A stretch of DNA of 64,000 nucleotides from the NCBI GenBank assembly GCA_048938105.1, contig JBHLMN010000007.1, positions 32,001 to 96,000 of the forward strand, read 5' to 3'. Under the pieces are notes generated by a model, which made no database searches, was not told the DNA's origin, and saw only the letters and a program-made list of their open reading frames with translations. Shown here piece by piece: positions 339-35,447 of this stretch. Both the position numbers and the translations under genes were made by a program. This DNA is from Promethearchaeota archaeon. GTDB lineage: Archaea > Asgardarchaeota > Heimdallarchaeia > Hodarchaeales > Hodarchaeaceae. The first letter of the stretch is position 1, and every line of letters begins with the position of its first letter.

Positions 339-890
339 CTAAATTTCATGATATTTTGGTGAAGAAATGTATATATGTTTATAAAAAGCTGATAATAATT
401 TCTTCAAGCACATTCTATGTTGTTCAGCCTTATCAATTGAATTAAAAACTCCTAACAGTAAAAGCTTCCGTCCTTCTAAAAATAAGCGATAGTGTTGAGA
501 GCGTGAATCCTTCACAACAATGAGCTGGAGATCATTTTTGAGCATAATACCTCTATCAGTTATAATCGCAGGTCGGAATATAATTTTTCGACCAAGATAG
601 ATATTACTCGAGGTCAGTATCAATATTGGTTGTTGATATAACGCATTCAACAACCCAAGTCCTCCAAGAATTATTCCGAAGAAGGAAACAATCAGTAAAC
701 TTATTGAAGTTATTTCTTCATACAATACTTCCATCCCAAAGGAACTGAGAATAAGGAATAATATAAGACTAAATAAACTTAATATTCCTCCATAAATGAC
801 TACTCGTTTCCAGTTGGGAGTTTCCTTAGGCAGATCAATAATGGTTTTTTTCTCAATGATATCAGTTACTCGAAAAGCTATTATATTCAC
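339..890 (-). CDS. Hypothetical membrane protein (2 TM plus soluble C-terminal domain)
   Basis: Two hydrophobic segments; start overlaps the NUDIX stop by 4 nt. Confidence 0.7.
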   Translation of the reverse strand: MNIIAFRVTDIIEKKTIIDLPKETPNWKRVVIYGGILSLFSLILFLILSSFGMEVLYEEITSISLLIVSFFGIILGGLGLLNALYQQPILILTSSNIYLGRKIIFRPAIITDRGIMLKNDLQLIVVKDSRSQHYRLFLEGRKLLLLGVFNSIDKAEQHRMCLKKLLSAFYKHIYISSPKYHEI

Positions 891-1429
891 CCATCCTTCT
901 CAAAGCAATTACAATACAATATATATAATGCTATTAATGTTTTTCCATCTTTAATTACTCCAGTATTTATATAGTGACGCATGTCATTAAATGAAAGGAT
1001 TTCTACCTCTGAAATCTCATCTGATGAGAAAGGTGCCCCTTTTAGAGAGATTCCTGTACCTTTATAGATATATAGCACCTCAGATGAATAACCGATGGCA
1101 GGAACATATTTTAGAAGGAGTTCGAGATTCTTAACAGTATGTCCTGTCTCTTCTTCAAATTCTCGTCGAATACACGCTTCTGGATCTTCACCAGGATCAA
1201 TCTTTCCAGCAGGAATTTCAAGAGTTTCTTCTTGGATTGAATAGCGATATTGTTTGACAAATAGTACCTGCCCATCTTCCAGAATAGGCACTAAAGCTGC
1301 TGCATCAGGATGTTCAACACGAATACGCTCTGTCACTCTTCCTGAGGGAAGTTCAACCTCATCAAGATTCACAGAGAACGAACGAGCTCGGATTGTCTCA
1401 ACTGTTCTCAATTTTTGTTCTTTTCCCAT
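887..1429 (-). CDS. NUDIX hydrolase, ADP-ribose pyrophosphatase-like
   Basis: Nudix box GKIDPGEDPEACIRREFEEETG; QYRY and LEIPAG motifs. Confidence 0.92.
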   Translation of the reverse strand: MGKEQKLRTVETIRARSFSVNLDEVELPSGRVTERIRVEHPDAAALVPILEDGQVLFVKQYRYSIQEETLEIPAGKIDPGEDPEACIRREFEEETGHTVKNLELLLKYVPAIGYSSEVLYIYKGTGISLKGAPFSSDEISEVEILSFNDMRHYINTGVIKDGKTLIALYILYCNCFEKDG

Positions 1430-1587
1430 AGTTTATCACTAAAATGATTTTATCAAACATTTCCTACTAATTTTTTCCTTCCAGCAGGAGTATTAAATCT
1501 TAGTTCAGAGAACGAATAAACAATATCTTTGTTATTCTCATTTAGGCAAAAGTAAAGAGTTGTTTAAGTAAGAATTCTCTCTTTATT

Positions 1588-3099
1588 TCAGTATTGTTTT
1601 CCTACATAGACATAGATTGACGCTTTTTTTCCACAGATGAAGCATTTTTCCCCTTTCCTAGGAGTTATGTTTTTATCAATCTCACGCATGTCTCTTCCTC
1701 TGACTGTAGCTGCTAATTGATCTTTAATTTCCATGGCACACTCTTCCCCATCAAGGTCAAGTGAACACCATGGGATTTTACACATTTTTTTGTTGTTGAC
1801 TTTTTCTTTTAATTCATCCATTGTATTTGCTTCTGTAATACTTTCATTAAAATGTTTTTGGGCATTAATGCGAATATTCTCTGTTAAAGCAGCTCCAAAT
1901 TCTGGGATTTTATTCACAAGATCATCAAACGGAATTGTTACTTTTTCTCTAGTATCACGTCTGAAAATAGTGATTTTCTTTTCTTTCACTTCCTTATTAC
2001 CGATTTCAAGTCGCAATGGTACTCCTTTCATTTCCCAAAAATAATATTTATCTCCAGGTCTACTGTCGCTTAAATCTATCTTTACACGATAACCTTTATC
2101 AATAAGGATATTCTCAATTTCAATACAATATTCTTCTATATGTTTGATATCCTTTTTCTTAGGAATGGGGATGATCACCACTTGTTTTGGAGCTACATCA
2201 AAGGGGAAAATCAACCCATTGTTATCTCCATGAACAGCTATCATTCCTCCAAATATTCGTGATATTGCTGGGCCATAACAGGTTTGATATGCTATTTTTT
2301 CATCACCATTCTGATCTGTATAAGTAATGCCGAATGCTTCCGCAAAATTGGAACCTAAAAGGTGGGTGGATGGTAGTTGCAAAAACCTTCCATCAGGCAT
2401 CAAGGTATCAGCAGCAAACGTGTGAACAGCGCCAGCAAATTTATCCCATTCTGGACGTTGGAAATAAATAATTGGAATTCCAAAAATATCAGTCATTACA
2501 TTATACGCAATTTGCATATCTTCTCTGGTCTGAGCTATAGCCTCCTCCATTGTCTGAAAAACGTTATGAGATTCAATCCAGATGAATTCACGACCTCTTA
2601 AGAATGGACGTGTCGATTTTCCTTCGTATCTAAAGACACTCCCACTTTGATAAAGTTTTAATGGTAGATCTCGCCAACTTCTAACCCATAAGGAGTATAA
2701 TGGATACATTGCAGTTTCAGAGGTTGGTCGAAGAGCTAACCTTTCTTCTAGAACTTCATTGCCCGCTCTTTCGATCCAGAATACTTCAGGGGTGAATCCT
2801 TCCACATGATCCTTTTCTACTTGAAAATTTGATTCTGGAATTACCATTGGGAATATTACTGGTTCATGACCAAATTTATCCAATTCATTTTCATAATAAT
2901 CAAACATCTTTTTCATTGCTATTGTTGCATATGCCCTATAAACAACAAAGCCTTTCACATTATAACGCATATCTGCGAGCTCAGCTCGCTTTACAATTTC
3001 AGTAAACCACTCAGAAAAGTTTTTCTCTTTGTCAATATTGAAAGTTTCTATTTCGGAAATAGATAACGCGTTTTCATTCATTGATTCATTATCGGACAT
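1588..3099 (-). CDS. proS: Prolyl-tRNA synthetase, archaeal/eukaryotic type
   Basis: LRPTSET, FRYE...PFLRGREF, anticodon domain KGVPLRLEIG, C-terminal Zn site and terminal Tyr. Confidence 0.97.
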   Translation of the reverse strand: MSDNESMNENALSISEIETFNIDKEKNFSEWFTEIVKRAELADMRYNVKGFVVYRAYATIAMKKMFDYYENELDKFGHEPVIFPMVIPESNFQVEKDHVEGFTPEVFWIERAGNEVLEERLALRPTSETAMYPLYSLWVRSWRDLPLKLYQSGSVFRYEGKSTRPFLRGREFIWIESHNVFQTMEEAIAQTREDMQIAYNVMTDIFGIPIIYFQRPEWDKFAGAVHTFAADTLMPDGRFLQLPSTHLLGSNFAEAFGITYTDQNGDEKIAYQTCYGPAISRIFGGMIAVHGDNNGLIFPFDVAPKQVVIIPIPKKKDIKHIEEYCIEIENILIDKGYRVKIDLSDSRPGDKYYFWEMKGVPLRLEIGNKEVKEKKITIFRRDTREKVTIPFDDLVNKIPEFGAALTENIRINAQKHFNESITEANTMDELKEKVNNKKMCKIPWCSLDLDGEECAMEIKDQLAATVRGRDMREIDKNITPRKGEKCFICGKKASIYVYVGKQY

Positions 3100-3343
3100 G
3101 ATTCATCGACCTGTGTGTCTATTATAAGTTTTTGGGAATATATCTCCCCTACTAAGAAATCTAAAGTTGATTAAAAAGCTTTTTGGAAGAGTTTGGGATG
3201 TACTTTGACAAAAATAAGGAGTTAAACGAGCATTTATACTGTTAAATGTAAGGAAAGCGATCCATCCTATAATTACTCTCCAATCTACCCCTTTTCAATT
3301 CATCTTTTAAGCTTCTCAGTATATCTCAATATATCGATTTACA

Positions 3344-4486
3344 ATGCCCCTTCGTCAATCTCTTTCAGGTATTCGTATTCTGGACTTAACCAGTAATCTT
3401 CCAGGGCCTTTAGCAAGTCAAATATTGGGTGATTTCGGAGCTGATGTTATTAAAGTAGAATCACTCAAAGGAGACAATGTAAGGCATGTTCCACCTTTTA
3501 TTGAAACAGAATCTGTTTTATTTCTTTTACTTAATAGGAATAAGCGATCTATTGCCATAGATCTTAAAACTGGTGAAGGAATAAAACTTTTTTATGAATT
3601 AGTTAAGACCTGCGATGTTGTACTAGAAGGATTTCGTCCTGGAACAACTAAACGAATGAAGATTGATTTTAATACACTTAAAAAACACAAACAAGATATA
3701 ATTTATTGTTCATTGATTGGTTATGACTTAGAAGATATGAGGTCTGGACATGATTTGAATTATGTGGGGGAAACTGGTATCCTCGATCTAACTGGGCCTA
3801 AAGATATTCCAACTCCAATAGGAGTTCCAATAGCTGATATCGGAGGGGGTAGTCTACCAGCTGTAATTTCCATCCTTGCGGCCTTATTAAACCGAAAAGA
3901 AGTACCTCAATTTCTTTGTGTTAAGATGACGGAGCAGTTAATCCCATGGTTGAGTGTTGCTGCATCTACTTACTTAGCAGGATTAGGTGAACCGCAACGA
4001 GAAGAACATGTATTATCAGGGTACAATCCATTCTATCGACTTTATCGAACAAAAGATAATCGATATGTGTCATTCGCACCAATAGAGTCTAAATTTTGGC
4101 ATAATTTTTGTAAAGCCATTGACCGAGAGGATCTTATCGGAAAGCAATTTGATTTCGACACTTGTAATATTGAACTACCTGAAATTTTTATTCAGAAAAC
4201 TCAATTGGAATGGACACACTGGTTCACAAATAATGATGTCCCAGGGGCTCCTGTTTTGTCAGTGGGAGAGGCATTAAGCGTAAAATCACGACTTCAAGAA
4301 CTCTATCACTCTATAGCAGGTAAAGTGTCTCTATTTGCTTCACCATTCTTAGATTATAATAATAAGGTGGATTTTCGTCCCCCACCTCTTCTAGGACAAC
4401 ATACGAGAAAAATTCTAGAAGAACTTGGATTTTCAGATGAAATCAACCAATTAAAACAGAAAGGAATAATTCTCACTTCAGGATGA
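3344..4486 (+). CDS. CoA-transferase family III (CaiB/BaiF)
   Basis: LPGP...GADVIKVE, NRNKRSIAIDLK, GFRPG, GHDLNY, PPLLGQHT. Confidence 0.93.
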   Translation: MPLRQSLSGIRILDLTSNLPGPLASQILGDFGADVIKVESLKGDNVRHVPPFIETESVLFLLLNRNKRSIAIDLKTGEGIKLFYELVKTCDVVLEGFRPGTTKRMKIDFNTLKKHKQDIIYCSLIGYDLEDMRSGHDLNYVGETGILDLTGPKDIPTPIGVPIADIGGGSLPAVISILAALLNRKEVPQFLCVKMTEQLIPWLSVAASTYLAGLGEPQREEHVLSGYNPFYRLYRTKDNRYVSFAPIESKFWHNFCKAIDREDLIGKQFDFDTCNIELPEIFIQKTQLEWTHWFTNNDVPGAPVLSVGEALSVKSRLQELYHSIAGKVSLFASPFLDYNNKVDFRPPPLLGQHTRKILEELGFSDEINQLKQKGIILTSG

Positions 4487-4517
4487 TTATACAAGACTTA
4501 GTATTCTTGTAGATCAT
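4483..4517. terminator. Hairpin spanning both stop codons of convergent genes
   Basis: ATGAT-TA-TACAAGA...TCTTGTA-G-ATCAT. Confidence 0.4.
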
Positions 4518-5431
4518 TTATGATCAATCCCAGAATCTAAATACCCATCTTTTGAAATCAAAGCGTAAGCCATTCGTATTGTGTTAAAGTGATACCCTAT
4601 CCTACCTTTTTTATCGATCAAGATGATACCACCAAAACCTCCAATTCCAGCGATTTTGTCAATAACGATTTTAGCAGCCATTTGTGGAGTATACCCTTTT
4701 TCAATAAGATCTGTGGCTAGTTTTGCTGCATTTAGCTTCATAAACGATTCACCATGACCTGTAGATGAAGCTGCTGCAACTTTGTTAGCATAACCACCAC
4801 TACCAATGATTGAACTATCTCCTAATCGTCCTATCATTTTAAATGGAGACCCTCCTGTTGATGTTGCTGAAGCTAGACTTCCGTTCATGTCTACTGCAAC
4901 TGCCCCCACTGTACCTTTTGCATTTGGAGAAAAAATATCATCTCCGATATTCCCTTTTTCCCATCGTTTCTGCTCACGGGGAATAATCAACTCCTCTGGA
5001 TCACAACTCAATCCAACTTTTTCCGCAAATTTATCAGCGCCTCGACCAACTAACATCATTGGTGAATTCACTTGATCCAATAACTTTCGTGCAAGAATAA
5101 TAGGATTACAACAGTTAGAGACCGCACCGATTGCTCCAGCATTAAGTGTACTGCCGTCCATTATTAAAGCATCCAGTTCTACATATCCTTCCTCATTTAA
5201 AAACGAACCTATCCCTGCATCAAAGGTAGGATCTTCTTCCATACAAATTACTGCCTTCTCAACGGCCTCAAGAGCACTTCCATGTTCAACCAGAACTTTA
5301 TACCCAGTTTTAACTGCATTAATAACGCCATCCAGATGTTCTGCCTTTAAATCTTCTGGAATACTCCAAGCACCTCCATGAACTATGATTGATGGTCTAT
5401 TTACTCCTTGTAAAGTATTTCTAGGGTTCAT
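4514..5431 (-). CDS. Isoaspartyl peptidase / plant-type L-asparaginase (Ntn hydrolase)
   Basis: VHGGA, autocleavage GTVGAVA, ATSTGG, GRLGDS, STGHGE. Confidence 0.93.
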   Translation of the reverse strand: MNPRNTLQGVNRPSIIVHGGAWSIPEDLKAEHLDGVINAVKTGYKVLVEHGSALEAVEKAVICMEEDPTFDAGIGSFLNEEGYVELDALIMDGSTLNAGAIGAVSNCCNPIILARKLLDQVNSPMMLVGRGADKFAEKVGLSCDPEELIIPREQKRWEKGNIGDDIFSPNAKGTVGAVAVDMNGSLASATSTGGSPFKMIGRLGDSSIIGSGGYANKVAAASSTGHGESFMKLNAAKLATDLIEKGYTPQMAAKIVIDKIAGIGGFGGIILIDKKGRIGYHFNTIRMAYALISKDGYLDSGIDHK

Positions 5432-9835: not shown

Positions 9836-10396
9836 GTGACACAGACAAATTCTAATCATCCAATAAGAATGGAAAAAATTATGATCAGTCCAAAGAGAAT
9901 GATTTATATCAAGCTTTGGGGACCCTCATATCATCCTAAATGGGGAATGACACGATCAACTATCGAATTACAGGAAGCCAGAGTATCTGACGGTAAACAA
10001 ATATCCTATGGAAGCCCTGTTCGACTTCCTTGTGATGGATCGTCAGCTATCATTGCAGATTTGATTCCTCATTTCATTATCGAGGGAAGACAATTAAATA
10101 GCGAATTTAAGAACCAAAAGAAAGAATTGACACAGGTTTTCACTGAGACGCTTAGACTGGAAGATAACAATCAATATTCTAGCATAAATTTAGAATCAGT
10201 TCTATTGGCCGAGTTTTCAAATCAAAAATTATCTAAAACCAGAATTCATTCAAAACTAACTGAAAAAGGATACGAAATTGATAAAGAAGCACTAGAGCAA
10301 TCTCTCGAATTATTAGCAGATCGAGAGAAAATAACAAAGGAGGTTGCTGTTCATGCTTCCTCTGGTACAAATTATTTTTTGTGGGGATTTTCATAA
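9836..10396 (+). CDS. Hypothetical protein with C-terminal winged-helix-like domain
   Basis: LSKTRIHSKLTEKGYEIDKEALEQSLELLADREKI...NYFLW; GAGGAG upstream of GTG. Confidence 0.7.
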   Translation: MTQTNSNHPIRMEKIMISPKRMIYIKLWGPSYHPKWGMTRSTIELQEARVSDGKQISYGSPVRLPCDGSSAIIADLIPHFIIEGRQLNSEFKNQKKELTQVFTETLRLEDNNQYSSINLESVLLAEFSNQKLSKTRIHSKLTEKGYEIDKEALEQSLELLADREKITKEVAVHASSGTNYFLWGFS

Positions 10397-10418
10397 ATCT
10401 TTTTCGGAGATAATCTTT

Positions 10419-11609
10419 ATGCAGCGCTCAGGTTTTGCAGAAATGCCTCTGCATCCTGGTAAAGCACCTCGATGGTTATTTCATCGAATGGAAAAACTAA
10501 CCAAAGAAATTTGTCTAATTATTATGGATGAATTTGGTTCTCATGAATTATTAAATCGTTTAAGTGATCCATTCTTTTTTCAAGCATTATCTTGTGTTAC
10601 AGGCTTTGACTGGCATTCTTCAGGGACTACTACTACAACATGTGGAGCCCTTAAAATAGCATTAAATGCCATTAAAGATTCCTCATGTCAAATATATGTG
10701 GCTGGTGGCAAAGGACATGTCTCAAAAAAAACTCCTGCAGAATTACGACTTGTTAATGATCATCTAAAGACAGATTTTTCAGATCAAGAAATTACTGATT
10801 TCATAAGAGCTAGTAAATTATCTGCGAAAGTTGACAATGCAGTTGTCCAAGACTCTTTTCAGCTCTATCACCATTGCTTTTTAATTGATTCAGACGGTAA
10901 TTACACAGTTATCCAGCAAGGAATGAATAGAAAATGGGCTAGACGATATCATTGGACATCTGATAGGCATAGGATAGGAGGAGGATCATTTAGTGAACAA
11001 CCTCGTGACTTAATAGCTTGTAATCAAATTATTGATAATACTCTTGATCTTACTGCAGATATTAGTCAACAAACTCGGAACTGTATTATAGACTTAATCA
11101 ATGATAATCCCACGCATTTGAGACAGTTCTTCCCTTGGAAGAAAAACCAGACAATCTTACCTTTAGATCACTTTTTCCAATCAAAACCAACAGGCATTGT
11201 CTCACGAAACATCTCCCCATTGTTATCAATGCCTGAGCGACATCAGATACTTCCAATAGACTTAGGGGAGTCAGAATTTCAAACATTAGTCTCAGCATAT
11301 GAACAACAACCAAATCAGTTCGATGATTTAGTTGAAATCCAAGGAATAGGGCCAAAAAAACTCCGAGCTCTCACATTAGTCTCCGAGCTGATTTTTGGAA
11401 CCCAAGTAAGCTGGAAGGATCCTGTTAAATATTCATTCGCTCATGGGGGGAAAGATGGAATTCCTTTTCCTGTTGATCGTAATGTATATGATTCAACTAT
11501 TCAAACATTACGGTCAGCTATCGATAATGCCCATTTATCCAATAAGACTCAGCTTAAAGCAATAAAAAACCTCTCTCTTTTTACTACCCGAGTTCGGTCA
11601 AGAAATTAG
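10419..11609 (+). CDS. DUF763-family protein with HhH motif (probable start ATG 10419)
   Basis: LHPGKAPRWLF, GFDWHSSGTTT, QDSFQLYHH, ARRYHW, IQGIGPKKLRAL, DPVKYSFAHGGKDG. Confidence 0.88.
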   Translation: MQRSGFAEMPLHPGKAPRWLFHRMEKLTKEICLIIMDEFGSHELLNRLSDPFFFQALSCVTGFDWHSSGTTTTTCGALKIALNAIKDSSCQIYVAGGKGHVSKKTPAELRLVNDHLKTDFSDQEITDFIRASKLSAKVDNAVVQDSFQLYHHCFLIDSDGNYTVIQQGMNRKWARRYHWTSDRHRIGGGSFSEQPRDLIACNQIIDNTLDLTADISQQTRNCIIDLINDNPTHLRQFFPWKKNQTILPLDHFFQSKPTGIVSRNISPLLSMPERHQILPIDLGESEFQTLVSAYEQQPNQFDDLVEIQGIGPKKLRALTLVSELIFGTQVSWKDPVKYSFAHGGKDGIPFPVDRNVYDSTIQTLRSAIDNAHLSNKTQLKAIKNLSLFTTRVRSRN

Positions 11610-11688
11610 CGTGATACAAGAATTTTTATTATGAACATATCCTAGACCTATATAAGTATGAAGCCTTTATTAGTACCTGAACTCGCCC

Positions 11689-12105
11689 ATGGCTTGGCAA
11701 ATGAGGTGTGCTGAGATGGACGAACAAATAAAGAATGAATTGCGCACTATTTTAGAAGAGGTGTTCCAAAAGAACTCACAGGTTCAGATGATCTCCTTAA
11801 TTACTCCTGAAGGGCTTCCAATTCTGACTTTTAACCGTGAATCGGAAAATGGACTTTCTGAAATCACAGATTCAGGTATCCTGAATAGATATGCAGCTCT
11901 TGCAGGAGCGAGTACAACATTAGGAGAACGTACACTTTCAACCCTCTCACAGGAGAAAGTTCGTCTAATACATGTTCAAGGTAAAACTAAAGATATTGCC
12001 ATTGCTGTTTCACCCCATTTAATATCTTTAGTGGTAACTGAACCCTCTGGAAGTCCTAACCTCATTGCTGAGAAGTTGAATACCAAACTTAAAGCAAAAT
12101 TATGA
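11689..12105 (+). CDS. Roadblock/LC7 (MglB/LAMTOR-like) protein; start probably 11716
   Basis: LITPEGLPI...YAALAGASTTLGER...IHVQG...IAIAV...LVV pattern; GAGGTG upstream of ATG 11716. Confidence 0.85.
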   Translation: MAWQMRCAEMDEQIKNELRTILEEVFQKNSQVQMISLITPEGLPILTFNRESENGLSEITDSGILNRYAALAGASTTLGERTLSTLSQEKVRLIHVQGKTKDIAIAVSPHLISLVVTEPSGSPNLIAEKLNTKLKAKL

Positions 12106-14081
12106 TTAAGGCATTTGATTTCATAATGGATCCTCTTCAATGGTTTAATATAACAAAAGAAGCTCTCCCTCTTGTAGAATCTGAACTTGATATCTCTCAA
12201 TTTGAACTGTTGAGCTTAATTCGACTTGATACAGAAGTTCAGACCTTTTCAACCTCTCAAAGCCAAGTAGATGTAAAAAACGCGGCCTTACTTGGGCAAG
12301 CATGGTTTATTCTTATGAATATTTTAACTAATGAACTTCAGTTGGAAGCTTGGAATTCTCTTACTATTAAGAGTCACAACAAATTTGTTACAATTTATTC
12401 TCTAGGTTTCGATGTATTTCTTATAATCTTGGCTGAAGCTACAGTTGATTCTATGGATGTCCTGAAAATAATTCTAAAATTTATTTTTCAGATCGGTTAC
12501 CAAAAGAAATATGAAATAGCTGGATTGGTTTCCTCGGAAGGTTATCCAGTCTGGCTGAATTCTGTAGAAGAGATGGATGATTTTCTCTTTGCAATTTCAA
12601 TTACGTCTCTTCTCTCTCTAGTTGAACGAATAGATTATGAGGTATCAGCAGGCGGAATAGGCGCTTGTATCCTTCAAGGAACTGAAAATTTACTTTTAAA
12701 TGTTGCTTTTAACCCATCTCAGGATTTAGCTCTGGCTGTAACACAAAAAGGCGAAGATCTAGATGTAGTAACTCTTGATCCTGACATAAATACACTTTAT
12801 CAGAAAATTGTAGATCCTGTGGTATTTAGTGCAATCGTACCAGAAATTATTGATGAAGACCGAGAGCGAATGTTGGAAGAGATTCGTCAGGCATTTGATG
12901 GTGAAACAACTGAAGAAGAAATCCAAACATTAAATATATTTGACACAGAAATGCTTAAATCTCTTGAAAATGAGATTAAAACAGTAGCTAAGAAATATAG
13001 AGCGAATGAGATTTCGATTGGGTATTTACGTAAAAGAATGAGACTACCAGCTGAAGTCCTTTCGATGGCTTTAGAATATCTTATTGGAGAGGGATCTATC
13101 AGTGGTAAAGTTGGTAAGGCTCGTGTATCGGGACAGGAAATACTAGTTCTTGATTCAATGGCCGATATTGATAAGGAAGATAAAGAGCAATTAGAAATCG
13201 TAACAACTCAAATTGAAGATCTTTTCACTCCTATAGAACCCCTCATTATGCAACTACCCTCTGTTCAACCATCAGAAGCAGATGTCCAAGAAGTTATCTC
13301 AGAAGCTCTTGGAGAATTCCAAATTATGTTAACACTAGCGGATACGGATCCTCTATATTTGTTAATCAATGATCTAAGGAGTGTGAGAGCACAATTAGAA
13401 AACTCTGCCAAAACATTCGCACTCGTGAAACAACAGTTATCAGAAACAGATCAAGAAGATGTTCTTCGTACTGAACTGGAGAGACGCCAGGCTAAATTAG
13501 ATGATAAAATCCATGAACAGCAATTAACAATCACTGGAAAAATCAACCGATTTTATGGAGATCTTCTAAATTCATATCGCTTATTTTTCCGATTACTTCC
13601 TATTCCAGTTAAATTTAATAGGTCGAAGAGAAAGAAAAATATCATTGTTGTTTTCGGGTGTCCTGCTCATAATTGTGGAACAACAGTTAAAATTCGGGAT
13701 AAACCAACTACATGGGTTAAATTAAGTGTTTTCGCTACTCTTCTCGGTATTCAGGATGATTTCCCTGAAAAAAATCCCCTTATTGTTATTAAATTAAAAA
13801 CAATTCTTGAAGATCGCTTTAATAAGATCATTGCTTTGAAGAAAGAAGAAGAAACAAAAATAGACCTTGTTTTAGAAAATTACCTTGCCATTGAAAATCT
13901 AGATGAACTTTTAATTTCTAATACTCAAAGGGATGATGGAGTTAAAAAGCTTAGAAAAGCCAGAGTTGGACGAGGCACTGATAAAGAAGATTTTTATTCC
14001 CTTTTTTCACAGTGTAACTCATGTAACAGATGGTATTGCAACAATCATATGGCAACTACCACTAAATGTAAATACTGTTGA
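12102..14081 (+). CDS. Multidomain protein: tandem roadblock-like domains, winged helix, coiled coil, Cys/His Zn finger
   Basis: GLVSSEGYPV...SLLSLVERI...ILQG roadblock; ISIGYLRKRMRL...LEYLIGEGSISGKV; CPAHNC, CNSCNRWYCNNH, CKYC. Confidence 0.75.
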   Translation: MIKAFDFIMDPLQWFNITKEALPLVESELDISQFELLSLIRLDTEVQTFSTSQSQVDVKNAALLGQAWFILMNILTNELQLEAWNSLTIKSHNKFVTIYSLGFDVFLIILAEATVDSMDVLKIILKFIFQIGYQKKYEIAGLVSSEGYPVWLNSVEEMDDFLFAISITSLLSLVERIDYEVSAGGIGACILQGTENLLLNVAFNPSQDLALAVTQKGEDLDVVTLDPDINTLYQKIVDPVVFSAIVPEIIDEDRERMLEEIRQAFDGETTEEEIQTLNIFDTEMLKSLENEIKTVAKKYRANEISIGYLRKRMRLPAEVLSMALEYLIGEGSISGKVGKARVSGQEILVLDSMADIDKEDKEQLEIVTTQIEDLFTPIEPLIMQLPSVQPSEADVQEVISEALGEFQIMLTLADTDPLYLLINDLRSVRAQLENSAKTFALVKQQLSETDQEDVLRTELERRQAKLDDKIHEQQLTITGKINRFYGDLLNSYRLFFRLLPIPVKFNRSKRKKNIIVVFGCPAHNCGTTVKIRDKPTTWVKLSVFATLLGIQDDFPEKNPLIVIKLKTILEDRFNKIIALKKEEETKIDLVLENYLAIENLDELLISNTQRDDGVKKLRKARVGRGTDKEDFYSLFSQCNSCNRWYCNNHMATTTKCKYC

Positions 14082-14899
14082 TTTTTTTTTCCTATTTGAG
14101 GACTAAATACATGGTTCTGGTTGCAGGCGTTGATATCGGCTCGTTGACAGCAAAAATTGTAGTATTATCGTTTTCTAATAAAATTAATGCTCCCCCCCAT
14201 CAAAAATATGCATTTATAAAACGTGTTGGTTATAATCCTGCAGGTGTTGCAGAGTCTTTAGTAAAAAATGCCAAAGAGACACTAAAAATAAAAGACTTTG
14301 CATATATAGTCTCTACTGGGTATGGAAGAAAATTAGCTCCATCAAATGAGAATATAACAGAGATCACTTGCCATGCAACTGGTGCTTTCTTTGTTAATAA
14401 TACTATTCGAACAATTATTGACATAGGTGGACAAGATTCTAAGGTTATTCAAATCAATGCTCAAGGACAGATCCAAGACTTTGAAATGAATGATAAATGT
14501 AGTGCTGGGACAGGGCGCTTCTTAGAAGTGATGGCCAATGCATTGGAAGTAGAATTATCAGAATTTGGTAATCAGGCACTTATTTCGACAAATCCCGCTT
14601 CTATTTCGAGTACTTGTACTGTATTTGCTGAGTCAGAAGTAATATCACGTTTAAACCAAGGAGCAAATAGATTAGATATTATTGCTGGTATTCATCAGAC
14701 AATTGCTAATAAAATTACTGCTTTAACTGCTCGTGTTGGTGTCATCCCTGTAGTAGCTCTAACAGGGGGGGTTGCTTTAAATCCTGGTGTGAAAAAAATG
14801 CTTGAACATCAAATGAACACGTCTATAGAAGTTCCACCAAACCCCCAAATGATCGGAGCATTAGGAGCTGCTCTGTTAGCTTCTAAACATCTGAACTAA
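14078..14899 (+). CDS. BadF/BadG/BcrA/BcrD-type ATPase (2-hydroxyacyl-CoA dehydratase activator family)
   Basis: GVDIGSLTAK, STGYGR, TEITCHA, DIGGQDSK, MNDKCSAGTGRFLE, STCTVFAESE, GGVALN. Confidence 0.93.
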   Translation: MIFFSYLRTKYMVLVAGVDIGSLTAKIVVLSFSNKINAPPHQKYAFIKRVGYNPAGVAESLVKNAKETLKIKDFAYIVSTGYGRKLAPSNENITEITCHATGAFFVNNTIRTIIDIGGQDSKVIQINAQGQIQDFEMNDKCSAGTGRFLEVMANALEVELSEFGNQALISTNPASISSTCTVFAESEVISRLNQGANRLDIIAGIHQTIANKITALTARVGVIPVVALTGGVALNPGVKKMLEHQMNTSIEVPPNPQMIGALGAALLASKHLN

Positions 14900-34220: not shown

Positions 34221-35447
34221 TCAAGTAATAATTGAAAAGAAATTAATAATCCAAGGGCGGATTTCCTCAATAAATTTCTCTGTTTCTGGCTCATTTTTTG
34301 ATTTAAATTTGGCACTAATTGAACAAAGGAACAACTTGATTGAATCAAATTCCATTCGATCAATGGTTATAAATATTCCTCCCATATTGCTCATAATTAC
34401 AAGTTTATCATGTTTTTTCTCGCTTTCATAAACCTCTTGGCGAATTGCTTCCATTATTTCTAAAAATAATTTGTCTCTTTGCTCTGTTGTTAATTGAGTA
34501 GTCCACTCTGCAGCTATAAAACAATTCTCTGTTAAGAGAAAACTTGCTGTAAAGCCATGAGTCTCAGAATAAAATGCAAGAGAATCGGAAAGAATTTTGC
34601 TTAAAGGGGAAACGTCTGAAAAAACTCGAGAAAATAATTTAACCAATTCTTCAACGTCAAAAATGCTTGTTCTTAATATTCTAAAGTCATACTCATGTTT
34701 AGTCAATATGGGCCTTATATTATTGAGAATAACATCGATTGAATTATCAAGCTCAGCTTTATCTAGGATTGGGTCATATTTATGTAGAACTAAATATACT
34801 TTAGGTTTCTCTTTCAAATACTTGAATTTTACTAATAGATTATTGAGGTATTGCGCTGCCTCACCTGAATATTCTTCTCTCTGTGTATCTAATACGAAGA
34901 TTAGTAGCATTGTTCGTGATAGGAATTGCTTAGGATCATCTAGATAGAGTCTGTGAAAACTTGGCTGCCCTCCAAGATCCCACAATGCGATTTTTAATCC
35001 AAGAAAATCAAGATGCTCTATTGAAGCTCCTAGAGTGGGAAAATGGATTGGGGTTGTTTTTTGCGTTTGCAAGGTTTTTATTAGGGAGCTTTTTCCTGCA
35101 GCACCCAATCCAGCTATGCAGACACGATGTGAAGATATAGGTATTTCAGTACTAGAAGCAAACCTATGGATAATAGACGCAGAAAGTGTCCATTTTTCTA
35201 GCAGCTTTTGACTTATTCCGATTTCATCAGCCATTTTAAGATCTAAATTTGCTAAATCAGCAATTGTTTCAATTTTAGCTTTTTGCTTAAGCTTTGTAGC
35301 ATAATATTTTCCAATACCTATTATCACTCTTGATGTAAATCCTGAAATCTCTTCACGCCTGTATTCATAAATAGGTTTTTCAAGGTGACTGTCCATTATT
35401 AAACTCCTTATTCGATCTGGAATGGCATTCTTGGCATTGCTGGACAT
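34221..35447 (-). CDS. Rag/Arf-like small GTPase with N-terminal HhH-like and C-terminal roadblock/longin-like domains
   Basis: GLGAAGKS, PTLG, WDLGGQ, HKYD, TSIF; N-terminal IGIGKYYATKL. Confidence 0.85.
   Translation of the reverse strand: MSSNAKNAIPDRIRSLIMDSHLEKPIYEYRREEISGFTSRVIIGIGKYYATKLKQKAKIETIADLANLDLKMADEIGISQKLLEKWTLSASIIHRFASSTEIPISSHRVCIAGLGAAGKSSLIKTLQTQKTTPIHFPTLGASIEHLDFLGLKIALWDLGGQPSFHRLYLDDPKQFLSRTMLLIFVLDTQREEYSGEAAQYLNNLLVKFKYLKEKPKVYLVLHKYDPILDKAELDNSIDVILNNIRPILTKHEYDFRILRTSIFDVEELVKLFSRVFSDVSPLSKILSDSLAFYSETHGFTASFLLTENCFIAAEWTTQLTTEQRDKLFLEIMEAIRQEVYESEKKHDKLVIMSNMGGIFITIDRMEFDSIKLFLCSISAKFKSKNEPETEKFIEEIRPWIINFFSIIT

Follow-up and report, generated by a model that had tools for sequence, protein, structure and literature searches.

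A conserved gene pair of Hodarchaeales encoding a stand-alone roadblock protein and a tandem-roadblock, winged-helix partner: a candidate platform for small GTPases

This study used comparative sequence and structure analysis for characterizing two adjacent genes in a 64,000-nucleotide (nt) stretch of DNA from Promethearchaeota archaeon (Hodarchaeales, Hodarchaeaceae; GCA_048938105.1, JBHLMN010000007.1, forward-strand positions 32,001-96,000), hereafter called the window. The upstream gene encodes a stand-alone roadblock protein (SMALL) and the downstream gene its large partner (BIG), whose two roadblock domains are referred to as RD1 and RD2. The results revealed that the pair is real and lineage-restricted and that SMALL and both N-terminal domains of BIG have the roadblock fold. 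We propose that SMALL and BIG constitute a two-subunit, Hodarchaeales-specific roadblock platform whose role would be to bind a small Ras/Rab-like GTPase and regulate it, a reading that we hold to be right or wrong with about equal probability. Each of the four rival explanations weighed below is less likely. The gene-level features are as follows (positions in the window).

11650-11657, forward strand: TATA-like box tatataag, read from the sequence, about 59 nt before ATG 11716; putative promoter element
11703-11708, forward strand: Shine-Dalgarno-like GAGGTG, 7 nt before ATG 11716
11716-12105, forward strand: SMALL, stand-alone roadblock protein of 129 amino acids (aa); reading frame open from ATG 11689 (138 aa)
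12102-14081, forward strand: BIG, open reading frame (ORF) of 659 aa; conserved start ATG 12126 (651 aa)

The gene pair and its lineage range

The ORF listing placed SMALL at 11689-12105 (+, 138 aa) and BIG at 12102-14081 (+, 659 aa), as a first-pass annotation of the window had claimed, and the sequence confirmed that both frames have the ATGA at 12102-12105 in common. That annotation had regarded this overlap as coupling the two genes. The homologues of SMALL are nearly all 129 aa long and begin with MDEQ, which corresponds to ATG 11716 here; because GAGGTG sits 7 nt ahead of it, we take ATG 11716 to be the true start. The homologues of BIG nearly all begin with MD(P/S)xQW, which corresponds to ATG 12126 and yields a protein of 651 aa. 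With the conserved starts 11716 and 12126, the two genes are separated by a spacer of 20 nt. Of 21 loci whose junctions were compared, only the window's own and those of its two nearest relatives showed the ATGA overlap; in the other loci, SMALL stopped 0-145 nt before the conserved BIG start, often with GGTGG or GAGG in the spacer. Because the conserved start of BIG is 12126, the overlap is not a conserved feature, and the claim of ATGA coupling does not hold. Because the genes abut, SMALL and BIG should surely be co-transcribed, to judge from their layout, and they would be transcribed together from the TATA-like box near 11650.

A word-index search identified 64 proteins homologous to BIG (E 1e-94 to 0). 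Because of these homologues and the conserved position of the pair, chance is excluded. An exhaustive search among 1.84 billion representative proteins recovered only 20 clusters of BIG. Most of the organism-labelled homologues were assigned to Hodarchaeales, Hodarchaeota or Heimdallarchaeota, and a few to Thorarchaeota or Promethearchaeota. BIG was present in 19 of the 20 species-representative genomes of the window's family and, with a broader profile, in both genomes of the sister family, one of these matches being a 141-aa fragment on a short contig. None of 377 genomes from other Asgard families matched the A1 profile, the broader A9 profile gave no full-length match in other families of the class, and a word-index search with a profile including distant members recovered no new members. 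The pair is single-copy in the genome studied. The homologues of SMALL numbered 88, most of them 127-131 aa long (129 commonest); at 56-91% identity, SMALL evolves slowly, whereas BIG, at 38-81% identity among aligned full-length members, evolves faster.

The two genes travel together: wherever upstream sequence was available, SMALL came before BIG, even at 24-27% identity. SMALL lay directly upstream of BIG on the same strand in all 13 loci of family f1 with upstream sequence, and the block comprising SMALL, BIG, a BcrAD-type activase and a PALP enzyme was kept in 14 of 14 family loci, followed by a nitroreductase where sequence was available (10 of the 14). These 14 loci are close kin, and the divergent relatives are more telling for the pairing. 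SMALL was also directly upstream of BIG in relatives at 24-36% identity (L001, L002/L003, L004, L030, L033/L034 and L036), and the other flanks of these relatives were unrelated, except that L036 kept the downstream activase. The gene pair first noticed in the window is therefore conserved, both in the 13 family loci and in the divergent relatives.

Domain architecture of SMALL and BIG

The structure of BIG was modelled with AlphaFold2 from a 37-sequence alignment (mean predicted local distance difference test score, pLDDT, 77), and its topology was assigned by DSSP. All of the following domains lie on the forward strand.

12132-12437, forward strand: RD1, roadblock-like, residues 11-112; alpha-beta-beta-alpha-beta-beta-beta by DSSP; block pLDDT 73-88; the less conserved domain
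12450-12803, forward strand: RD2, complete roadblock with alpha1 and alpha3, residues 117-234; block pLDDT 65-91
12822-12944, forward strand: acidic linker, residues 241-281; consensus VPEIxDEERERxLxEIRQEFxGEITEEEIQTLNxFD; block pLDDT 40-45
12945-13151, forward strand: PCI-type winged helix, residues 282-350; invariant G-Y-L-R-x-R-x-x-L-P; block pLDDT 70-80
13347-13595, forward strand: antiparallel helical hairpin, residues 416-498 (H416-448 and H454-498); block pLDDT 82-95
13641-13700, forward strand: beta-hairpin (strands E514-519 and E528-533) with the putative first zinc knuckle C520-x4-C525; both Cys invariant in 37 sequences
13704-13955, forward strand: helical insert, residues 535-618, between the halves of the putative zinc site; packs with the hairpin as one unit
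14004-14078, forward strand: C-terminal Cys/His cluster C638-x2-C641-x4-C646-x2-H649-x6-C656-x2-C659; invariant positions

The roadblock fold of RD2 was evident from a VIA structure search. Residues 116-239 matched the Asgard protein Roadblock3 (9jue) at Z 13.2, with a root-mean-square deviation (rmsd) of 2.5 and 116 of 120 residues aligned; MglB (6h5b/6hjm) followed at Z 13.0, chain 5y39_G of Ragulator, a roadblock of roughly 117 residues, at Z 12.9, and the C-terminal domains of Gtr1/Gtr2 at Z about 9. RD1 was not visible in the VIA list because matches to RD2 fill it. In the independent model of the ESM Atlas, residues about 13-116 matched Robl_LC7 clusters at template modelling (TM) scores of 0.71-0.76. 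Mean column identity was 0.51 in RD1 and 0.69 in RD2. The two roadblock repeats proposed by the first-pass annotation, with the first being the weaker, are thus both present according to these matches and the DSSP topology.

At the sequence level, the roadblock signal is fainter. SMALL reached E 0.11 and 12.7 bits against Pfam Robl_LC7 (PF03259), under the cut-off of 23, and neither BIG nor its RD1 or RD2 piece gave any match to this family. The family profile of SMALL, compared with the sequences of the PDB, returned 19 matches, 17 of which were roadblock, LC7 or MglC chains (best match the Odinarchaeota Robl 7f8f, E 0.0024). The RD2 part of the broad family profile matched stand-alone ORFs at E 8e-10 and 2e-7, and these ORFs pass Pfam Robl_LC7 at 5.8e-14 and 1e-18; the sequence link of RD2 to PF03259 would therefore be a transitive one only. 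In both SMALL and RD2, conservation is highest in the alpha2 helix. Together, the folds and the profile matches of SMALL bear out the earlier description of a multi-roadblock protein encoded beside a stand-alone roadblock gene.

Two highly conserved segments follow RD2. The acidic linker is predicted to be disordered, yet its column identity is 0.73 (median net charge -9), and it may serve as a binding motif. The winged helix, with a column identity of 0.74, is the most conserved part of BIG, ahead of the linker and RD2. In the VIA search, residues 280-351 matched residues 351-412 of a COP9 signalosome chain (9efq_B) at Z 10.2, rmsd 1.6 and 21% identity, and UFL1/DDRGK1 (8c0d_B) at Z 9.8. Across the winged helices of PCI domains (COP9 signalosome, proteasome lid, eIF3; UFL1/DDRGK1), the likeness extends over 62-67 residues at rmsd 1.6-2.0 and 16-21% identity, and the pattern I..G.I.G(K/R)(I/V) is common to them and BIG. 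Pfam PCI (PF01399) was matched under threshold in 14 of 37 members (best E 0.0066), and DnaB_2, an unrelated winged helix, in 18 of 37. A winged-helix profile compared with PDB sequences matched nothing meaningful. BIG lacks the helical-repeat half of a PCI domain: ahead of its winged helix there are only two low-confidence helices (residues 252-278, pLDDT about 42). Because this half is missing and the Pfam PCI threshold was not reached, we describe the segment as a PCI-type winged helix and not as a PCI domain; the PCI-like character suggested earlier stands for the winged-helix subdomain and not for membership in the PCI family.

The C-terminal part of BIG begins with the long helical hairpin that had been anticipated from the sequence and that the AlphaFold2 model bears out; its structural matches were of a generic helical kind. 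Residues 504-659 comprise a beta-hairpin, four helices and the Cys/His tail (pLDDT mostly 86-93). Eight ligands are invariant in the 37 sequences, namely C520, C525, C638, C641, C646, H649, C656 and C659, and they are split by about 112 residues. The first-pass annotation had likewise counted eight potential zinc ligands; the number and the split stand, whereas H523 of its CPAHNC motif is not conserved and does not belong to them. Three divergent homologues carry His in place of C659, a swap typical of a metal ligand, and one distant homologue lacks the 638-646 knuckle.

The annotation had further compared the ligand spacing to PHD/FYVE-type fingers. This comparison was not sustained: Pfam gave no PHD or FYVE match at E up to 10 for residues 500-659 or 620-659, and the R(R/K)HHCR motif of FYVE is absent from the BIG sequence. 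The only family signal was zf-AN1 (PF01428), which the last 40 residues matched at 18.5 bits and E 0.002, under the cut-off of 27.9. The six ligands C-x2-C-x4-C-x2-H-x6-C-x2-C of BIG resemble the second half of the AN1 pattern. In contrast to AN1 fingers, in which eight contiguous ligands bind two zinc ions, BIG has six contiguous ligands; the first Cys pair is found 112 residues further upstream, separated from the others by an inserted helical subdomain. From the ligand order of AN1 fingers, the putative zinc sites would likely be C520/C525/C646/H649 and C638/C641/C656/C659. With this pairing, the first knuckle would come from the beta-hairpin 112 residues upstream.

Residues 400-659 were modelled as one confident unit (pLDDT 88.8, predicted TM score 0.84). 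Against 48,161 chains in VIA, the best match was at Z 8.6, to helical bundles and designed proteins; the lowest E from Foldseek against the PDB was 0.16, and TM scores in the ESM Atlas were at most 0.46 by query. All of these matches are within the noise expected of helical proteins, and the predicted structure of the C-terminal 260 residues appears to match no solved fold.

A weak likeness to this module was observed in a 556-aa protein from another family of the same class (genome G052, L044 3654-5324, - strand), which has a mostly helical N-terminal region and no Pfam family. Its C-terminal roughly 140 residues share LPxP, a Cys pair in a hairpin, a Trp that is conserved and a C-x2-C at the end with the zinc-helical module of BIG (profile E 3e-4; hhalign E 0.002 but probability 14%). 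If this likeness is real, the C-terminal module would be a mobile domain that, in its simplest form, carries one split zinc site. HEAT-repeat proteins of other Heimdallarchaeia (P0182) may also contain the module.

The whole architecture was not recognized by the first-pass annotation, and our searches agree: it has no match in Pfam, NCBIfam or the sequences of the PDB, and no paper was found under four homologue accessions or locus tags. The full-family profile of BIG gave only a spurious J-domain match (E 0.59) among PDB sequences, and a feature search of the ESM Atlas with whole BIG returned no usable match. The keyword-matched passages of two papers on Asgard roadblock proteins (PMC10933270 and PMC12962969) do not describe this architecture.

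A candidate GTPase platform and its alternatives

The closest known relatives of the pair are MglB and the stand-alone Asgard roadblock proteins. MglB, the bacterial GTPase-activating protein (GAP) of the Ras-like MglA (6h5b, 6hjm and 3t12), and the Asgard roadblocks (9jue, 7yh1 and 7f8m; Tran et al. 2024, PMC10933270) have their fold in common with RD2 (Z 13.0-13.2 over 116-120 residues), RD1 and SMALL, and the action that we would expect them to share is that of roadblock dimers serving as platforms for small GTPases. In contrast to these proteins, three roadblock domains are here distributed over two polypeptides, and the PCI-type winged helix, helical hairpin and split zinc module of BIG are found in neither MglB nor any described Asgard roadblock. 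This fusion architecture is absent from Pfam, NCBIfam and the PDB.

The proposed mechanism follows from these relatives. SMALL, RD1 and RD2 would pair through their beta-sheets and alpha2 helices, as in all known roadblock proteins. The resulting platform would dock a Ras/Rab-like small GTPase and either control its nucleotide state, in the manner of a GAP or a guanine nucleotide exchange factor (GEF), or anchor it. Additional partners would be recruited by three adaptor surfaces: the acidic linker, the PCI-type winged helix and the C-terminal helical module with its zinc staple.

The best lead to a client, as far as gene order can suggest one, comes from the divergent clade B (L004, L033 and L035). 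In these loci, a gene encoding a Rab-like GTPase of 179-183 aa lies in convergent orientation 11-37 nt after BIG. The clade-B BIG proteins (P0161, P0162 and P0165) are 30-45% identical to one another, and the three loci differ in their other flanks. The GTPases are 68-82% identical to each other (clade support 99/99). The G1-G5 motifs of this Rab-like GTPase are intact (GDGAVGKT, TIGADF, WDLAGQERF, NKID and ETSAK), and it has no C-terminal Cys; one representative, P0179, matched Pfam Ras at 6.6e-47. A metagenome scan revealed no further clade-B loci, and a genome scan only a bacterial roadblock-like stretch.

Several points weigh against the GTPase-platform reading. No GTPase gene adjoins the pair in the window or in the 14 close-family loci examined; of the loci studied, only those of clade B have a Rab-like GTPase beside the pair, as would be expected of an MglB-type GAP, and the three GTPase-adjacent loci are mutually related and not independent events. 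At E limits of 1e-12 to 1e-15, the window's genome has at least 32-35 genes for small GTPases of the Ras/Rab-like type, and none of these paralogues resolves as the orthologue of the pair-adjacent GTPase, six being nearly tied at 50-57% identity in a tree that is an unresolved polytomy. Profile-profile comparison found no significant mutual similarity among SMALL, RD1 and RD2; the RD2-SMALL comparison gave E 0.05 over 98 columns in the correct register, below significance. Because dynein light chains contain roadblock domains as well, as do archaeal fusions with winged helix-turn-helix (wHTH) domains, the fold alone is no proof of GTPase regulation. A complex prediction of SMALL with residues 9-240 of BIG, each supplied as an alignment, scored 0.20 and 0.19 against a mark of 0.32, which speaks on neither side of the binding question. 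As an observation in its own right, the number of Ras/Rab-like genes illustrates the GTPase expansion in this Hodarchaeales genome.

Three known systems offer further comparison. Ragulator (LAMTOR2/3 and LAMTOR4/5) and the C-terminal roadblocks of Rag/Gtr proteins (5y39, 6ehr and 3r7w) form a multi-roadblock assembly, as the SMALL-BIG pair would; the winged-helix, hairpin and zinc parts of BIG have no counterpart there. The Streptomyces conservon, which we take to comprise the roadblock protein CvnB, the wHTH-like DUF742 protein CvnC and the GTPase CvnD, would similarly place a roadblock, a winged-helix-like protein and a small GTPase in one prokaryotic module, and a roadblock/LC7 structure from Streptomyces avermitilis (3kye) matched RD2 at Z 11.8 (VIA). 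Unlike in the conservon, the roadblock and winged helix are here fused, and the window's clade has no sensor kinase or adjacent GTPase; the Pfam scans gave no match to DUF742. The tri-longin RabGEFs (Mon1-Ccz1 and Fuzzy-Inturned) use tandem longin/roadblock-type alpha/beta sandwiches to act on Rabs and appeared in Foldseek at E 3e-4 to 1e-3, but with TM scores of only 0.12-0.19 and rmsd 16-25. BIG has two such domains, not three, and a roadblock rather than a longin topology, and no heterodimeric BIG paralogue was seen.

Of the other explanations, a nucleic-acid-binding regulator would have its tandem alpha/beta domains sense a ligand, as GAF or PAS domains do, and leave contact with DNA or RNA to the winged helix and the zinc tail, much as CodY combines a sensor with a wHTH. 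CodY (GAF plus wHTH) did appear in the Foldseek list at E about 1e-3 over 240-280 columns, but at TM scores of 0.10-0.12 and rmsd about 18. Archaeal fusions of Robl_LC7 with HTH_24 in the ESM Atlas, and hairpin-plus-zinc proteins such as CT398 (4ilo), which matched the BIG hairpin at Z 7.5, are consistent with such a function. The net charge of the winged helix is +2, and its basic R-x-R patch is invariant; however, its third helix, the would-be recognition helix (AEVLSMALEYLIGEG), is acidic and hydrophobic, the pI of whole BIG is 4.8, and the best winged-helix matches are the protein-binding PCI-type domains of the COP9 signalosome chain and UFL1/DDRGK1 and not DNA-binding ones. With the pair also adjoining a GTPase in one subclade, we consider this regulator unlikely. 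The same winged-helix matches (Z 10.2 and Z 9.8) would favour a ubiquitin-, UFM- or proteasome-like adaptor, in which the winged helix docks a lid- or COP9-signalosome-like assembly or a UFL1-like ligase, the AN1-like module acts as in ZFAND proteins, and the roadblocks serve for dimerization only. Such an adaptor would accord with the sub-threshold signals of PCI (14 of 37 members) and zf-AN1. These family matches are nevertheless all below threshold, DnaB_2 was matched as often as PCI (18 of 37 members), the PCI helical-repeat half is absent, and no ubiquitin-system gene was adjacent in any locus examined, which makes the adaptor decidedly unlikely. The link of the module to ubiquitin that the first-pass annotation had drawn relies on the same weak resemblances (the PCI-type winged helix and the AN1-like pattern), and nothing points to the membrane-related link that it had offered alongside.

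The annotation had also cast the pair as Ragulator-like and had named the Rag-like GTPase at 34221-35447 as a possible partner. As a true Ragulator counterpart, the pair would be a scaffold for this helix-hairpin-helix Rag-like GTPase through roadblock pairing with its C-terminal domain. The protein indeed matches Gtr1_RagA (E 8.3e-21), and RD2 resembles both the Ragulator roadblock chains (Z 12.9) and the Gtr1/Gtr2 C-terminal domains (Z about 9). In contrast, the pair is present in 19 of 20 family genomes but close orthologues of the Rag-like GTPase in only 9 of 20, and its relatives of about 400 aa are common across many Asgard families without the pair. The Rag-like gene and the pair are 20 kb apart and on opposite strands, and the GTPase that adjoins the pair elsewhere is Rab/Ras-like and not Rag-like. 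Neither a second heterodimer nor a p18-like wrapping subunit was apparent at the loci, although short helical proteins are hard to detect. We found no apparent phyletic or positional link between this GTPase and the pair, so that neither the partnership nor the Ragulator comparison was borne out, and a Ragulator counterpart is very improbable. Least probable of all is an LC7-like cytoskeletal adaptor, in which roadblock dimers would, independently of any GTPase, join cargo to a filament system (tubulin or actin) or to a motor-like ATPase. Many dynein LC7 chains occur among the SMALL profile matches (E 0.01-0.7), and L004 has a tubulin gene about 5 kb away from the pair; the tubulin neighbour is found in that locus only, MglB and Asgard roadblocks score equal to or better than the LC7 chains, and archaea are not known to have a dynein-like motor.

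The Rag-like gene (34221-35447, - strand) was also examined for its own architecture. It encodes a 407-aa protein with a Rag/Gtr-type GTPase domain and a C-terminal extension, and its front part gave a weak, sub-threshold helix-hairpin-helix match (HHH_5, E 4e-4).

The two-subunit GTPase platform thus remains the reading that we favour. A bolder version of it, which we think improbable, is that SMALL, BIG and the clade-B Rab-like GTPase form a Rab-regulating complex that couples nucleotide state to lid-, COP9-signalosome- or UFL1-like machinery through the winged helix and the split AN1-like module. If this were true, such a coupling of Rab and ubiquitin-family functions would be one for which no organism is known, and the 260 residues of the C-terminal helical module with its zinc staple would represent a new fold.

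In eukaryotes, the machines that switch Rag, Rab and Arf GTPases are built around roadblock and longin platforms, and Hodarchaeales has been proposed as the order of archaea most closely related to eukaryotes. The module therefore bears on the question of how such platforms were assembled before eukaryotes arose. The three-protein system of SMALL, BIG and the clade-B Rab-like GTPase is concrete enough for reconstitution. If the GTPase link holds, the pair would be among the few Asgard regulator-GTPase pairs that are assignable from genome layout; if it fails, the module would be a lineage-specific scaffold. For the lokiarchaeon MK-D1, a passage of Tran et al. 2024 (PMC10933270) indicates that regulator-GTPase pairs are generally not assignable in this way.

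Neighbouring genes

Directly after BIG, the window carries a gene (14078-14899, probable start ATG 14111) for an ATPase resembling the BcrAD/BadFG-type activases of acyl-CoA dehydratases (Pfam 7.9e-61; TIGR00241 4.3e-71). No dehydratase subunit was seen beside it in the window. The adjacency of this activase to BIG was observed in 14 of 14 family loci and in L036, where BIG is 35% identical and BcrAD_BadFG lies 17 nt downstream, and it is absent in more distant relatives.

Just upstream of the pair, the window encodes a DUF763 protein (10344-11609; Pfam 5.3e-115), the ORF of which overlaps by 53 nt with an ORF at 9836-10396. The latter encodes 186 aa with a weak match to an RNase R-type winged helix (HTH_12, E 0.031). 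The DUF763 and 186-aa genes occur in some family loci only. In L004, a tubulin-family gene (1-798, - strand) and a gene for a 1389-aa protein without a Pfam family (810-4979, - strand) lie immediately upstream of the trio of SMALL, BIG and the Rab-like GTPase.

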